The notes below the pieces were generated by a model. It was given only the letters and a program-made list of their open reading frames with translations, did no database searches and was not told where the DNA came from. From positions 15,120-79,119 of the forward strand of contig JBAWWL010000006.1 of the NCBI GenBank assembly GCA_037146775.1: a DNA stretch of 64,000 nt, given 5' to 3'. Both the position numbers and the translations under genes were made by a program. Within the stretch, counting starts at the first letter, position 1, and every line of letters starts with the position of its first letter. Positions 25,686 through 44,679 of the stretch are shown piece by piece. Origin of the DNA: Candidatus Omnitrophota bacterium (GTDB lineage: Bacteria; Omnitrophota; Gorgyraeia; Duberdicusellales; 4484-171).

Positions 25686-26644
25686 TGTAAAACCATCCCT
25701 TTAATGAAAAGATTGATCAATAACTGCACAAACGCCAGCGGTACCATATATTTCCAGCAAAAAATGATCATCTGGTCTATACGCAAACGTGCAAAAAGCG
25801 CCCGGGAAAGCGACAGTATGGCCACAATACAGAAAATCTTCCCCATAAATATACCGAAACGCAGAAAGGGGCCACACGTATAGCCAAAAGGCAGGAATAC
25901 CGCTGCCAAGAAAGCCGCTCCTACCACCATTTCAATGTTCAATGTCAAACGCAACATCGCAAAAAACCTTCCGCTATACTCGGTGAAGATTCCCGCCACC
26001 ACCTCGGTTTCTGCTTCCGGAATATCAAAAGGCGCTTTTTCTAATTTTGCTAAAAGTGCTAAAACCGCGACGCCAAAACCAATAACGTTATATAGCCAGT
26101 ACCAGGGATGCGTATCATAAAATACGGCAATACGCGAAAGCGACCAGCTGTCGGCCAATAACGCCGAAGATAATACCGCGATAAATAAAGGGACTTCGTA
26201 AGAAAAAAGTTGTGTGAGCGAACGTACCGAACCGATTCTGGCAAAAAGCGAAGTTGAATACCAGCCGCCGATAAAAAATGCGAGCGTAGGAATGGTCAAA
26301 AGATAAAGCACTACTATGACATCTCCATCAAAAGAGTATAACGCACGCATATTCCATAATGGAATATAAAAAATAGTCGTGACGGTGGCACTTAAGGCAA
26401 CCAGCGGCATTAACTTAAACATACTCTGATTAGCTGCCCGCGGTATGATAGCCTCTTTACCTAATAGTTTAATAAAATCAGCGACCGGCTGAAACCATGG
26501 CGGGCCAATTCTATTTTGCAGCCGTGCATATAATTTCCGGTCGATAAATTCCGCAAAAAAGCTAATGACAGTTAAAAAAAGAAATCCCGGGAATATTAAA
26601 ATACAAAAAAGATCTTTAAGGTATCTGAACATTTCAGCCATCAA
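25682..26644 (-). CDS. Membrane subunit, NuoH/MbhM/HycD-like
   Basis: 320 aa polytopic NuoH-family protein. Confidence 0.8.
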   Translation of the reverse strand: MMAEMFRYLKDLFCILIFPGFLFLTVISFFAEFIDRKLYARLQNRIGPPWFQPVADFIKLLGKEAIIPRAANQSMFKLMPLVALSATVTTIFYIPLWNMRALYSFDGDVIVVLYLLTIPTLAFFIGGWYSTSLFARIGSVRSLTQLFSYEVPLFIAVLSSALLADSWSLSRIAVFYDTHPWYWLYNVIGFGVAVLALLAKLEKAPFDIPEAETEVVAGIFTEYSGRFFAMLRLTLNIEMVVGAAFLAAVFLPFGYTCGPFLRFGIFMGKIFCIVAILSLSRALFARLRIDQMIIFCWKYMVPLAFVQLLINLFIKGMVLQ

Positions 26645-27876
26645 AGCCTGACTTTGTCGGAAAAACTTTTATTAAGATCTGAAAAATCTACCCCTTGCTT
26701 CTTATACCACTCAATACTGTAGTTACGTAACTTCCCCCATTCGATAATTTCGTTATCCTTTTTGCCGCCATATTCAAGAGAAATTAGTCTGTCCGTACAG
26801 GAAAAACAGGGGTCAATCGCCGCGATCACGATCGGCATATCGGCGAGGTAGCGATCTTTAAGCATTTGTTTTACCGCTTTCATATTAGCTAAGGTCGGCG
26901 CCCGTACTTTTACCCGTTCGGGCTTGTCAGTTCCGTTAGATTTTACATAATGCATATCTTCTCCGCGTGGAGCTTCATAACGGCTAATCGCTTCTCCTGC
27001 CTTAACCGTACGCGGTGCCCTGACGACGATAGGGCTATCCGGCAAATTCGTTAATATTTGCCGTATTATTTTATACGCCTGCATCAATTCTTTAAGCCGC
27101 ACAAGGGTTCTGCCGTACACATCACCATGAGTATCAGTAATCACCTCAAAAGAAACTTGGTCATAAGCAGCATAAGGGTCATCCCGGCGCACGTCGCGAT
27201 CTACGGCCGAAGCTCGGCCAGTGGGGCCAACCGCACCCAGACGCACTGCTTCTTCGTGAGATAGAACACCGACGCCGGAAAGCCTCTTGATAAGCGTGGT
27301 TTCTTCGGTACCTATCTCAATATAATACTTTGTGCGTTCCTCAAGCGTATCTATCGCTTTAAGAACATCTGTAATTTGAGTTTTATCGATATCACGCCGC
27401 ACTCCGCCTATGGTATTAATACCATAGTTTACGCGATTCCCTGTAAGTAAGGCTAAAATATCCATCACCACTTCCCGGTCACGCCAGGTATACATCAATA
27501 ATGTGTCAAAACCTATTTCGTGGCCGGCCACTCCCAGCCAAAGATAGTGGCTATGGATACGCTCTAACTCAGCGACAAGAGTACGAATATACAACGCTCT
27601 CTGAGGAACGGTTAAACCGATTAACTCCTCAACCGCCTGCACAAAACATGTTGAATGAGCGTGCGAACAGATACCACAAATACGCTCAATAAGATAGAGG
27701 TCTTGGATATAAGTTCTCTCTTCGCAGGCTTTCTCTATTCCACGATGGTTATAACCAAGCCGTATATCCACACCTTTGATTTTCTCACCCTTGAGCGCAA
27801 TGCTAAAACTTGCCGGCTCCTTAAGCGCGGGGTGTTGTGGCCCTATGGGAATTTTAAATTTATGCGCATGCGTCAT
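26641..27876 (-). CDS. Group 4 [NiFe]-hydrogenase large subunit (NuoD/MbhL/EchE-like)
   Basis: N-terminal nickel-binding RICGICSHAH (RxCGxCxxxH); C-terminal DPCFSCTDR followed by a 48-aa extension of the kind removed by HycI-type proteases; strong Shine-Dalgarno AAAGAGGAGA. Confidence 0.85.
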   Translation of the reverse strand: MTHAHKFKIPIGPQHPALKEPASFSIALKGEKIKGVDIRLGYNHRGIEKACEERTYIQDLYLIERICGICSHAHSTCFVQAVEELIGLTVPQRALYIRTLVAELERIHSHYLWLGVAGHEIGFDTLLMYTWRDREVVMDILALLTGNRVNYGINTIGGVRRDIDKTQITDVLKAIDTLEERTKYYIEIGTEETTLIKRLSGVGVLSHEEAVRLGAVGPTGRASAVDRDVRRDDPYAAYDQVSFEVITDTHGDVYGRTLVRLKELMQAYKIIRQILTNLPDSPIVVRAPRTVKAGEAISRYEAPRGEDMHYVKSNGTDKPERVKVRAPTLANMKAVKQMLKDRYLADMPIVIAAIDPCFSCTDRLISLEYGGKKDNEIIEWGKLRNYSIEWYKKQGVDFSDLNKSFSDKVRL

Positions 27877-27897
27877 AATATTCTCCTCTTTACTGCT

Positions 27898-27988
27898 CAG
27901 GAATCAGAGGCCAGAAACCAGATGCCAGACACCAGAATTCAGGGAACAGAGGTCGGAAGTCAGAGAACAAAAATCAGAAGACAGAAAA
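27898..27988. repeat. Tandem array of 13 degenerate 7-bp units (CAGANNN), upstream of the large-subunit start
   Basis: caggaat cagaggc cagaaac cagatgc cagacac cagaatt cagggaa cagaggt cggaagt cagagaa caaaaat cagaaga cagaaaa, followed by the hairpin GGAGAAA-aacc-TTTCTCC at 27990-28007. Confidence 0.75.
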
Positions 27989-28082
27989 AAGGGAGAAAAA
28001 CCTTTCTCCTTCTTGTCTTTTACTGTCCGCCCCACATTCTCTTCTTGCTTTCTTTTATTCTTTTTCATCTGCTCTCTACCAT

Positions 28083-28643
28083 CTAGGTTTTATCCTTTAT
28101 ATCACGACTTCCATCTTCTATCCTCTGTCTTCTGTCATCTGTCATCTGACCTCTGTCTTCTGTCCTCTGACTTCTGTCATCTGTCATCTGAATTCTGTCT
28201 TTCGGTTTCCAGTCTTTACGCAAAGGAAACTCATCCATCGGCCAGTCATCAGGCAGTGGATAACGATGTGAAGGCGACAAAGTATCAATTTTTATACCCA
28301 ATAAATCCATCATTTCCCTTTCATAAATCTCCGCATAAGGAAAATACGGGGTTACGGTTTTAAAAACAGGATTGTCTCTGGAAGCTCCTGTTTTAATATT
28401 CAAAAGAACCCCTTTGTTGTCAGCAAGATGGTACAGCGCCGCCATCTGGACACCCTCGTCAAGGCCGGTGATAGCACAAAGATTCCCAAATCCCAGGTTT
28501 TTTACTGCATAGTCAAATACCTCAAGGAATTGACTGCCTTCTATCTCCAAAAAAATACGGCGCTGGCGCATTATTCTGATTTTACCTTCTAAGTAATGAA
28601 AACGCGTAGTTAGTGCTTGTTGAATATTTTCTTCTGCCGACAT
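28083..28643 (-). CDS. NuoC/MbhK/HycE-N-like hydrogenase subunit with a repeat-encoded low-complexity C-terminal tail
   Basis: 30-kDa-subunit fold. The last ~35 residues come from the 7-bp repeat array; the true stop may lie earlier. Confidence 0.7.
   Translation of the reverse strand: MSAEENIQQALTTRFHYLEGKIRIMRQRRIFLEIEGSQFLEVFDYAVKNLGFGNLCAITGLDEGVQMAALYHLADNKGVLLNIKTGASRDNPVFKTVTPYFPYAEIYEREMMDLLGIKIDTLSPSHRYPLPDDWPMDEFPLRKDWKPKDRIQMTDDRSQRTEDRGQMTDDRRQRIEDGSRDIKDKT
28110..28200. repeat. Tandem array of 13 degenerate 7-bp units (TCTGNNN), inverted with respect to 27898-27988; it encodes the C-terminal tail of the NuoC-like protein
   Basis: tccatct tctatcc tctgtct tctgtca tctgtca tctgacc tctgtct tctgtcc tctgact tctgtca tctgtca tctgaat tctgtct. 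Translated on the minus strand this gives RIQMTDDRSQRTEDRGQMTDDRRQRIEDGS. Confidence 0.75.
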
Positions 28644-28667
28644 GATATAACCTTATACCTTAATTGA

Positions 28668-29114
28668 CTATTTTTCTTTTACCGGCGTTTTAAGGCTTTC
28701 TAATAATTTCACTACTCCATCGATGATCGCCTTCGGACTTGCCGGACAACCAGGAACATACGCAGAAACCGGTAATACCGAGTCAATACCCGATCCAACA
28801 TTATAACAGCCTTTAAATACACCCCCGGAGCACGCACAGGTGCCTACGGCGATGACAAATTTTGGCGCACACATTTGTTCATAGATCCGCCTCAACCTGT
28901 CTTCTACCTGTTTCGTTACCGGGCCCGAACAGACAAGGATATCCGCCTGCCGAGGACCGCTTTTAAGCTGAACACCAAAACGCTCCAGATCGTAACGCGG
29001 AGTAAGGGTAGCAATAAGTTCGATATCACACGCGTTGCACGCGCCGGTATTAAAATGCAGGATCCACGGTGATTTGATTCGTGCCCAATTTACAATTTCT
29101 TTTATGCTAGCCAT
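28668..29114 (-). CDS. [NiFe]-hydrogenase small subunit (NuoB/MbhJ/HycG-like)
   Basis: Cysteine motifs CNACDIE, GTCACSGG and VPGCP. Confidence 0.85.
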   Translation of the reverse strand: MASIKEIVNWARIKSPWILHFNTGACNACDIELIATLTPRYDLERFGVQLKSGPRQADILVCSGPVTKQVEDRLRRIYEQMCAPKFVIAVGTCACSGGVFKGCYNVGSGIDSVLPVSAYVPGCPASPKAIIDGVVKLLESLKTPVKEK

Positions 29115-43260: not shown

Positions 43261-44679
43261 TTATTGGCTGACAGTATCAAGCATTGCTTGTGCAGCTTTT
43301 TTCGCCATCCCCATGGCCTCAATAACCGTTCCTTCTCCTCCGACGATATCACCGCCGGCAAAAACACCCTTTACCGAAGTCTCCATGGTATCCTGGTTTA
43401 CTATCACATCCGCGTAAGAATCTGTTTTTAGCTGCGGCGTAACACTGGTAAGTATCTGATTTGCCTTCAATCCTATGGCGATAATTGCTTCATCGCATTC
43501 CAATTCGAAATCACTGCCTTTGATCTCGATTGGCCGTCTGCGACCAGACGCATCCGGTTCGCCCAACTCACATTGTAAACATTTTATATTGTGTACCAAA
43601 CCCTGTTCATCGCCAAGAAACGCCTCTGGTTTCACCAAAAGCCTAAACTTCACGCCTTCTTCTTTAGCATGCTCAATCTCAAGGCGGCGGGCCGGCATCT
43701 CTATTTCGGTACGCCGATACAAAATAGTAGTATCGGGCGCTATATCATTCATTTTTTGCAACCTCAACGCTACGCGCGCTGAATCCATGGCGGTATTACC
43801 TCCGCCGACGACAACAATATGTCTGCCGATGGTAACAGGAGTATGGGTTTTAGGAAACGCATACGCTGACATGAGGTTCACTCGGGTCAAAAACTCATTC
43901 GCGGAATACACATTACAAAAATTTTCGCCCGGGATACCCAGAAATGATGGTATACCCGCTCCCAAACCAAGAAAAATTCCGGTATAACCCTGAGTGAAAA
44001 GTTCCTCCAAGGTGATATTTTTACCGACAATAAAATTCGGGATAAAAGTCACCCCCATGGCTTTTAACGAATTGATTTCGGAATCCAAAATATCTCGCGG
44101 AAGACGGAACGGAGGTATACCGTAGCGTAATACCCCTCCTAATTTATGCAAGCTTTCGAACATGTCGACTTTTATGCCGGCCCTGGCCAGTTCTCCGGCA
44201 CAGCATAACCCTGCCGGCCCGGAACCCACCACCGCCACCTTCTTAACGTTGGACGTTGGACGTTGAACGTTGAACGTTGAATTTTGATTATGCATCCCAT
44301 AGTCGCCGACAAACCGCTCAAGAAAATGTATGTTGATCGCCTGGTCGGACGCGTAAGGAGAACCTTTTTTCGTGAGCACGCAGGCATTACGGCACTGATA
44401 TTCCGCCGGGCACACTCTTCCGCAGATAGAAGGAAAATTATTTTTCTCTCTGATGGTAAGATACGCCCCTTGATAATCTTTTTGCGTAATCTGATAAATG
44501 AACTTTTTGATATCGATTCCCACAGGACAACCGGAACTACAGGCCGGATTTTTGCACTGCAGACAACGCGATGCTTCGTGAAGCGTCTCTTCTTCGCTAT
44601 AGCCGGCAACAACCTCCTGGAAATTATTAACCCTGACAGCGGCAGCCACTTCTTTAATCTTAACCGGATCTTTTCTCAT
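43261..44679 (-). CDS. nfnB: GltD-like FAD/NAD(P) oxidoreductase (NfnB/SudA-type, glutamate synthase small-subunit family)
   Basis: N-terminal Fe-S cysteine cluster, VAVVGSGPAGLCCA and a second NAD(P)-binding fold; paired with a PyrK-like subunit. Confidence 0.8.
   Translation of the reverse strand: MRKDPVKIKEVAAAVRVNNFQEVVAGYSEEETLHEASRCLQCKNPACSSGCPVGIDIKKFIYQITQKDYQGAYLTIREKNNFPSICGRVCPAEYQCRNACVLTKKGSPYASDQAINIHFLERFVGDYGMHNQNSTFNVQRPTSNVKKVAVVGSGPAGLCCAGELARAGIKVDMFESLHKLGGVLRYGIPPFRLPRDILDSEINSLKAMGVTFIPNFIVGKNITLEELFTQGYTGIFLGLGAGIPSFLGIPGENFCNVYSANEFLTRVNLMSAYAFPKTHTPVTIGRHIVVVGGGNTAMDSARVALRLQKMNDIAPDTTILYRRTEIEMPARRLEIEHAKEEGVKFRLLVKPEAFLGDEQGLVHNIKCLQCELGEPDASGRRRPIEIKGSDFELECDEAIIAIGLKANQILTSVTPQLKTDSYADVIVNQDTMETSVKGVFAGGDIVGGEGTVIEAMGMAKKAAQAMLDTVSQ
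44245..44279. repeat. 7-bp tandem repeat (RACGTTG, 5 units) inside the nfnB linker region
   Basis: aacgttg gacgttg gacgttg aacgttg aacgttg; translated on the minus strand it gives STFNVQRPTSNV, between the Fe-S domain and the FAD-binding domain. Confidence 0.7.

Follow-up and report, generated by a model that had tools for sequence, protein, structure and literature searches.

A convergent pair of heptanucleotide repeat arrays at the mbhK-mbhL junction of a Candidatus Omnitrophota hydrogenase operon and its predicted intercistronic RNA hairpin

Does an inverted pair of heptanucleotide repeat arrays at a gene junction of a [NiFe]-hydrogenase operon act as a switch for that hydrogenase, or is it an instance of a repeat found in many genomes? 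The question is raised by a stretch of 64,000 nucleotides from a Candidatus Omnitrophota bacterium (GenBank assembly GCA_037146775.1, contig JBAWWL010000006.1, positions 15,120 to 79,119), hereafter the window, in which two arrays, A and B, lie around the junction of the genes mbhK and mbhL. A preliminary description of the locus had proposed a phase-variable element in which the arrays pair in the operon mRNA and hide the ribosome-binding site of the large-subunit gene mbhL. The arrays are one case of a widespread, already reported class, and no hydrogenase-specific switch. The explanation that we favour, with middling confidence, is a convergent heptanucleotide pair made by slippage, which forms an intercistronic RNA hairpin and at most tunes expression.

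The positions of both arrays, with 13 units in each, were borne out by a pattern scan and by Tandem Repeats Finder (TRF). Array A occupies window positions 27898-27988 and reads CAGANNN x13 on the plus strand. Array B (28107..28200) is read on the minus strand; its best register, 28107-28197, likewise holds 13 CAGANNN units, and an extra degenerate unit extends it to about 28200. When the whole 64-kb window was scanned for four successive CAGANNN units, at most two mismatches being allowed, all 20 matches fell within arrays A and B, compared with an expectation of 0.02 from shuffled sequence. Autocorrelation at a lag of 7 is the sole short-period signal in the window and arises at two places, the hydrogenase locus and 44245-44281. 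Array A is degenerate and decayed, with an exact CAGA core in nine of its 13 units, one mismatch in the other four, and all 13 units distinct. Array B is cleaner (exact cores in 11 of 13 units; consensus CAGA-D-G-W; eight unit types) and is so built that a single CAGAATT unit precedes two 42-nt blocks with five differences between them. The block structure accounts for the 14- and 21-nt periods that TRF gave in addition to period 7, at which 77% of positions match. The gap between the arms measures 118-121 nt and the CAGA arm leads. The locus thus has what characterizes heptad pairs: at least four to five tandem 7-nt units, a convergent partner on the opposite strand within a few hundred base pairs, and a site, predicted to be transcribed, between the co-directional open reading frames (ORFs) mbhK and mbhL, the 5' arm lying over the end of mbhK.

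The local genes, all on the minus strand, make up a [NiFe]-hydrogenase operon of the Mbh type (group 4), whose members are Mrp-like antiporter subunits, a NuoB-like small subunit, a NuoC-like subunit, the large subunit, a NuoH-like subunit, ferredoxin subunits and a HycI-type protease. The names mbhK and mbhL were given because chains K and L of the Pyrococcus furiosus membrane-bound hydrogenase (6CFW) are the closest solved structures to the two gene products. The NuoC-like gene mbhK (28083..28643, minus strand; Complex1_30kDa) encodes a protein of 186 aa identical to NCBI MEI8349673.1, from a metagenome-assembled Candidatus Omnitrophota genome. The large-subunit gene mbhL (26641..27876, minus strand) encodes 411 aa and has its ATG at 27876. 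On the sense RNA, which would carry both genes, the end of mbhK runs through array B, the purine-rich 5' arm, to the stop codon TAG at 28085-28083. The TAG lies within the spacer (27989..28106, minus strand), which is 73% purine on the sense strand and contains a weak terminator-like hairpin. Array A follows as the pyrimidine-rich 3' arm, (NNNUCUG)13, with 27% purine on the sense strand, in the 5'-untranslated region (UTR) of mbhL. After a further 8 nt come the Shine-Dalgarno (SD) sequence AGAGGAG (27883..27889, minus strand) and the mbhL ATG. In these respects the preliminary description was accurate, as it had placed array B at the low-complexity end of the NuoC-like gene, array A beside the mbhL SD sequence, and between them a spacer, pyrimidine-rich on the plus strand and here measured at 118-121 nt, with a 7-bp hairpin.

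This small hairpin (27992..28009, minus strand) is followed by a U-run (U6) and is terminator-like on both strands. With its T-runs (27990-28011) it adjoins array A and is off-centre in the inverted pair. A terminator scan found three terminator-like sites in the region against 1.1 expected, which is not above chance, and the long hairpin described below has no U-tract after it.

The sense transcript from 28215 to 27860 folds with a predicted energy of -109.3 kcal/mol, compared with -85.5 +/- 4.8 kcal/mol for dinucleotide shuffles (z = -5.0). Its main predicted element is a long imperfect RNA hairpin (27912..28197, minus strand), in which 28197-28114 pairs with 27912-27988 through 67 base pairs, eight of them G-U, in stacks of 1-14 bp. 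Of the duplex of some 90 bp that had been proposed, the stable, long and imperfect character is retained, while the inter-arm pairs number 67. The heptamer repeat therefore forms, in silico only, one arm of a long hairpin in 5'-UTR RNA, as the repeats of the Haemophilus influenzae hmw genes do. Covariance models of Rfam 15, run at a permissive E-value on window positions 27000-29000, returned a best E-value of 0.4 and no score near a gathering score.

The long helix stops at 27912 and excludes the SD sequence, so that the duplex does not cover the large-subunit ribosome-binding site as had been supposed. What pairing the SD sequence has is local: in the minimum-energy structure its AGAGG is paired with a left-over CCUCU of array A (27906-27910). 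Its mean unpaired probability is 0.2-0.4 and varies with the amount of flanking sequence folded. When extra units were added to array B in silico, SD accessibility rose from 0.41 to 0.69, from 0.21 to 0.28 and from 0.24 to 0.41 in three sequence contexts, a modest increase that is explained by more of array A being titrated. A mechanically called ORF of 54 aa (MKKNKRKQEENVGRTVKDKKEKGFSPFFLSSDFCSLTSDLCSLNSGVWHLVSGL; 27904-28068, minus strand) starts in the spacer, covers nearly all of array A and ends 14 nt ahead of the mbhL SD sequence. It is unlikely to be a real gene, and its translation, if this occurred, would open up the 3' arm.

A slip of 7 bp in array B had been expected to switch the NuoC-like gene by frameshift. 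The last part of the 186-aa ORF, including QMTDDRSQRTEDRGQMTDDRRQRIEDGS, is indeed coded by array B. The conserved part of MbhK extends to about residue 147, the approximate limit of its Pfam domain and of its match to 6CFW chain K, and the remaining tail of 39 aa is lineage-specific. In 30 homologues, MbhK ends 2-15 residues past the invariant motif PLRKDWKP, directly after which array B begins here. One of the three frames of array B is open, and the other two reach a TGA, supplied by CAGATGA units, within a few codons. With the array past the conserved domain and the other frames stopping early, a one-unit slip would shorten the non-conserved tail and leave the domain intact, and the frameshift switch is not upheld. 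The stop codon of mbhK is found before the 5' arm in some relatives (L171, L186 and L136; loci are numbered with the prefix L), inside it in others (L121, L127) and after it in L179, indicating that reading into the array is not conserved. The odd annotated C-terminal tail of MbhK is repeat read-through; from these comparisons the coding overlap appears incidental and the tail dispensable.

The preliminary description had also called for a comparison of copy number. The 90% cluster of MbhK has a second member, of 200 aa, on contig CAZTHQ010000006.1 of assembly GCA_964613555.1, which matches the window with 99.98% identity and four mismatches over 20.6 kb. The sole indel in these 20.6 kb is one added copy of the 42-bp block (28149..28190, minus strand; six units, or the 14 codons QMTDDRSQRTEDRG). 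It is in frame and brings array B from 13 to 19 units, with an additional QMTDDRSQRTEDRG in the protein, while array A and the spacer are unchanged and the spacer has the same orientation. Copy number therefore does differ between these assemblies, by an in-frame block; the 13 versus 19 units reflect either real length variation or assembly collapse. Two loci with related arrays, L121 and L204, are identical across their 1,004 shared bases and are uninformative for population variation.

The mbhK-mbhL junction was compared in 80 metagenomic relatives of the operon. The distance from PLRKDW to the MbhL motif IPIGPQHP is normally 50-60 nt. An expanded junction with inverted CAGANNN-type arrays occurs in L121/L204, whose MbhK is 63% identical, and expanded junctions with unrelated heptad units occur in further relatives (GATAGAA in L127; ATTCGAA-like in L171; GAATGAT in L179; AAAGTTN-like in L186; CTTTAGN-like in L136). 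Period 7 accounts for 11 segments in the loci of the relatives, compared with 0-3 for each of periods 5, 6, 8, 9 and 10. By crude ORF calls, heptad arrays are present at 3 of 53 K-L junctions versus 4 of 233 other junctions, so that enrichment at this junction is at most modest.

Other junctions of the relatives' cluster also have heptad arrays and inverted pairs, namely at 750-928 and 1392-1501 of L123, 127-201 of L140, 1448-1501 of L179, and 397-478 and 925-980 of L132, with units such as CCAATAA/TTGGTTA, GGCTATG/CATAGCC, GTGAGAC x5 and others. Heptad hairpins seem to be a general trait of the intergenic DNA of these relatives, which have several arrays per 3 kb; the 64-kb window contains a single CAGANNN locus and, at 44245, one further heptad array. 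In L123 (1938-2089) and L129 (1471-1641), the expanded mbhK-mbhL junction holds G+C-rich palindromes and not heptads, with sequence of the GCGGATATCCGC type and a GGGCGCC...GGCGCCC hairpin. Judging from these cases, the junction seems repeatedly to take structured insertions of varied kinds. The opposite extreme is seen in L131, L155, L159 and L181-L183, where PLRKDW and IPIGPQHP are separated by only about 22 nt and mbhK and mbhL must therefore overlap; the gap between the two genes in the window is 206 nt.

To place the pair in a wider setting, one genome per species was scanned for exact runs of five CAGANNN units. At least 120 loci (L001-L120) were obtained from Planctomycetota, Acidobacteriota, Verrucomicrobiota, Omnitrophota, Desulfobacterota, Bacteroidota, cyanobacteria, Streptomyces and others. 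Among the matches listed, a CAGA array is followed by a TCTG array within 300 nt at 19 loci and the reverse order occurs at none; the genes flanking these 19 pairs are co-directional or convergent, three pairs lie inside a called ORF, and, by crude ORF calls, none of the 19 lies between divergent genes. A detector that is agnostic to the unit, applied to L001-L120 and L121-L202, returned 23 pairs with the purine-rich arm first versus two with the pyrimidine-rich arm first; nine of ten pairs made of other units are purine-first, and the polarity is the same whichever strand is read. Examples of purine-first pairs are L003 4845-4918, L077 5326-5426, and L090 4271-4404 and 5700-5840. In some pairs, such as that of L077, complementarity is limited to the 4-nt core. 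With CAGANNN arrays at this many loci and in many phyla, the arrays are, at the level of the class, the generic repeat that the preliminary description had itself named as the alternative to a specific regulatory element. The element appears, on this distribution, to be neither hydrogenase-specific nor a fixed sequence family.

Several systems described previously resemble the pair in part. In Geobacter metallireducens, arrays of five MTYCTGA heptanucleotides, one array per strand, make up eight pairs, one of them located between proB and proA; these were listed as 'class 3 predicted global regulator binding sites', for which IHF/HU binding was proposed without a test (Aklujkar et al. 2009, PMC2700814, Additional file 9). 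They share with the mbh pair the TCAGA/TCTGA core (reverse complement TCAGRAK), the arm order, a variable spacer and intergenic sites within operons; they differ in that the arrays are shorter, the eight pairs are recognizable by BLAST within one genome, and coding overlap is not reported. Xanthomonas genomes carry 70-75 convergent inverted pairs of GGGAATC heptamers each. The pairs favour gaps between aligned ORFs and the vicinity of stop codons, are rarer where the flanking ORFs diverge, and for the most part are transcribed (Rehm et al. 2015, PMC4692102). These GGGNATC simple sequence repeats (SSRs) of Xanthomonas and Nostoc likewise consist of tandem 7-nt units of variable copy number in convergent pairs with the purine/G-rich arm first. 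Their unit, on the other hand, is G-rich, forms G-quadruplexes and is preferred in runs of four, whereas the mbh locus has a CAGANNN unit without G-tracts, 13-19 units per arm and one arm in a coding tail.

Of such elements, only that of H. influenzae hmw1A/hmw2A has a mechanism established by experiment: the (ATCTTTC)n repeat of the 5'-UTR supplies one arm of a long hairpin, RNase III processes this hairpin, and expression varies with repeat number (Rapun-Araiz et al. 2025, PMC12721329). In both systems a transcribed heptanucleotide SSR provides a long RNA hairpin arm, which for mbh is predicted only. The hmw repeats are perfect and highly mutable, pair with a non-repeat G-rich arm and lie downstream of a promoter, whereas both mbh arms are degenerate arrays in an intercistronic position. 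Arrays of TAACTGA in marine Beggiatoaceae, cyanobacteria and Bacteroidetes adjoin start codons and a role in translation was proposed for them; heptanucleotides are summarized in the same work as the most abundant long SSR class, possibly as a result of contacts between DNA polymerase and template (MacGregor 2015, PMC4679880). The TAACTGA arrays are similar in being intergenic heptamers with a CTGA motif, and unlike mbh in being nearly always direct, with 2-6 units, a single inverted case and a unit that is fixed genome-wide. The mbh element can also be set beside the REP (repetitive extragenic palindromic)/BIME (bacterial interspersed mosaic element) type of palindrome, with which it has an intercistronic stem-loop past a stop codon in common, and from which it differs in having arms of tandem heptads. 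REP/BIME palindromes are transcribed intergenic stem-loops after stop codons in operons, and can protect upstream mRNA and alter expression ratios; REPs share a conserved sequence of about 35 nt, are associated with RAYT transposases and do not consist of tandem heptads.

In the explanation that we favour, the pair would have originated by slippage during replication, both by single 7-nt steps and by blocks of several units, of which the 42-bp block variant may be an example, probably joined by templated copying between the arms of the imperfect palindrome. The purine-rich arm would have grown over the 3' end of mbhK, its stop-free frame being read, as a by-product, as a charged tail of 30-44 aa. 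In the mRNA of the mbh operon, the CAGANNN arm and the NNNUCUG arm would form the imperfect hairpin of about 67 bp, held by the 4-nt core. If formed in the cell, this hairpin would most likely act post-transcriptionally as a processing or stability element, possibly as a substrate of RNase III, and could stabilize the upstream segment. It might also be a mild modulator of mbhL translation initiation, as left-over UCUG/CCUCU units would compete for the SD sequence. Changes in array length would then tune mbhL expression, with no on/off switching.

A number of results weigh against this explanation. The effect on SD accessibility is small and dependent on context. The antisense strand folds about as well as the sense strand (-103.4 versus -109.3 kcal/mol), and as both strands fold alike, nothing favours the sense-strand RNA specifically; folding asymmetry between the strands is also close to nil in L121 and is uninformative as a test at the RNA level. 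Compared unit by unit, the variable positions of the two arms agree at a fraction of 0.33, a level that shifted registers also reach. The fold was not weakened when arm A had its units permuted (mean -112.2 kcal/mol) or its variable bases shuffled (mean -109.8 kcal/mol), while scrambling its UCUG core reduced it to -82.7 kcal/mol, indicating that the duplex rests wholly on the 4-nt core (CAGA/UCUG) together with the purine/pyrimidine asymmetry. Nothing indicates that a particular pairing has been selected. The length variant may be an assembly artefact, since short-read assemblers can collapse an exact 42-nt tandem duplication. Finally, the closest relative, L122 (MbhK 78% identical), has no array at the junction, showing that the hydrogenase does not need it.

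Many of these results agree as well with the main rival explanation, namely that the arrays are a neutral mutational by-product of heptanucleotide slippage wherever intergenic DNA tolerates arrays, with no selected function and a negligible effect on expression. We regard this as a real possibility, if a doubtful one. It would readily accommodate the decay of arm A into 13 distinct units, the lack of unit-level complementarity between the arms, the missing element in L122, the separate unit sequence at the locus of each relative and the at most modest enrichment at the K-L junction (3/53 versus 4/233, crude ORF calls). Slippage by itself, however, hardly yields the purine-first polarity of 23 in 25 pairs, the depletion between divergent genes, which was also reported for Xanthomonas (Rehm et al. 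2015, PMC4692102), or a TCAGA/TCTGA core shared across phyla, and a helix of 67 bp in an mRNA is unlikely to be wholly without effect.

There is also a bolder proposal. Inverted heptad arrays with a TCAGA/UCUGA-type core and a nearly constant purine-first order could be a cross-phylum functional element, located between cistrons and at the 3' ends of genes in Omnitrophota, Planctomycetota, Acidobacteriota, Desulfobacterota and others. Such an element would be read in a 7-nt register by a conserved factor, for example a single-strand binder of the cold-shock type or a DNA-binding protein that reads heptads, or would be a pause or termination signal independent of a U-tract, and it would set expression ratios within operons such as mbh. 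We consider this proposal unlikely.

Less probable again is the phase-variable, riboswitch-like device of the preliminary description, with a duplex that hides the mbhL ribosome-binding site and 7-bp slips that frameshift mbhK. A stable duplex is predicted, two assemblies differ in array length, and the hmw loci of H. influenzae provide a precedent (PMC12721329). Against this stand the position of the SD sequence outside the duplex, the restriction of any frameshift to a non-conserved tail, the in-frame nature of the variant, and a generic class with no tie to hydrogenases. Moreover, the units are heterogeneous (13 kinds in array A and eight in array B), unlike the perfect repeats of contingency loci.

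Very improbable, in our view, and slightly more so than the switch, is an element acting at the DNA level, in which heptad-spaced CAGA/TCTG cores would bind a nucleoid-associated protein or one that reads heptads. Binding to 7-bp heptads is known for ribbon-helix-helix proteins, among them omega of pSM19035. The restriction of inter-arm conservation to the 4-nt core, the presence of this core in the Geobacter class 3 sites, the equivalence of the strands in folding and the 21-nt superperiod of array B, equal to two turns of B-DNA, would all fit such binding. A single sequence-specific protein is nevertheless difficult to reconcile with the wholly different units in the pairs of relatives; divergent regions, where promoters lie, are avoided, and the 21-nt period also follows from block duplication and the coding frame.

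The least credible explanation, that of a miniature inverted-repeat transposable element with heptad arrays as its terminal inverted repeats at the end of mbhK, or of an invertible DNA switch, draws on the inverted arms about a spacer and on the closest relative lacking the element. Neither form of it is supported. No target-site duplication or flanking direct repeat is visible at the locus, a search of the window and of about 200 loci gave no further copy of the spacer apart from its own copy in L203, and arm lengths and spacers vary freely between loci. The spacer has the same orientation in the second assembly, and the adjacent genes are all hydrogenase subunits with no adjoining recombinase.

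The second heptad array of the window, (A/G)ACGTTG x5 at 44245-44281, has a unit that includes the palindrome AACGTT. It lies within an ORF of 472 aa (43261..44679, minus strand), just upstream of an apparent KKVAVVGSGPAGL dinucleotide-binding motif, as read from the DNA. The array could be an in-frame linker insertion, or the 472-aa ORF could be two genes. The predicted RNA fold of 44245-44281 is not more stable than that of shuffled sequences.

For the mbh locus, the outcome is chiefly a correction: the repeat pair is real, and it does not amount to evidence for a hydrogenase-specific phase switch. Beyond this locus, many uncultured phyla have pairs of heptanucleotide repeats in abundance. 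The purine-first polarity, a shared core of only 4-5 nt, the adjacency to stop codons and the recurrence at one operon junction with unrelated units offer experimental handles for culturable carriers such as Geobacter metallireducens and Xanthomonas. If it is true that RNA hairpins and RNase III tune operons through such pairs, as at hmw, these repeats would constitute a widespread and evolvable regulatory layer.

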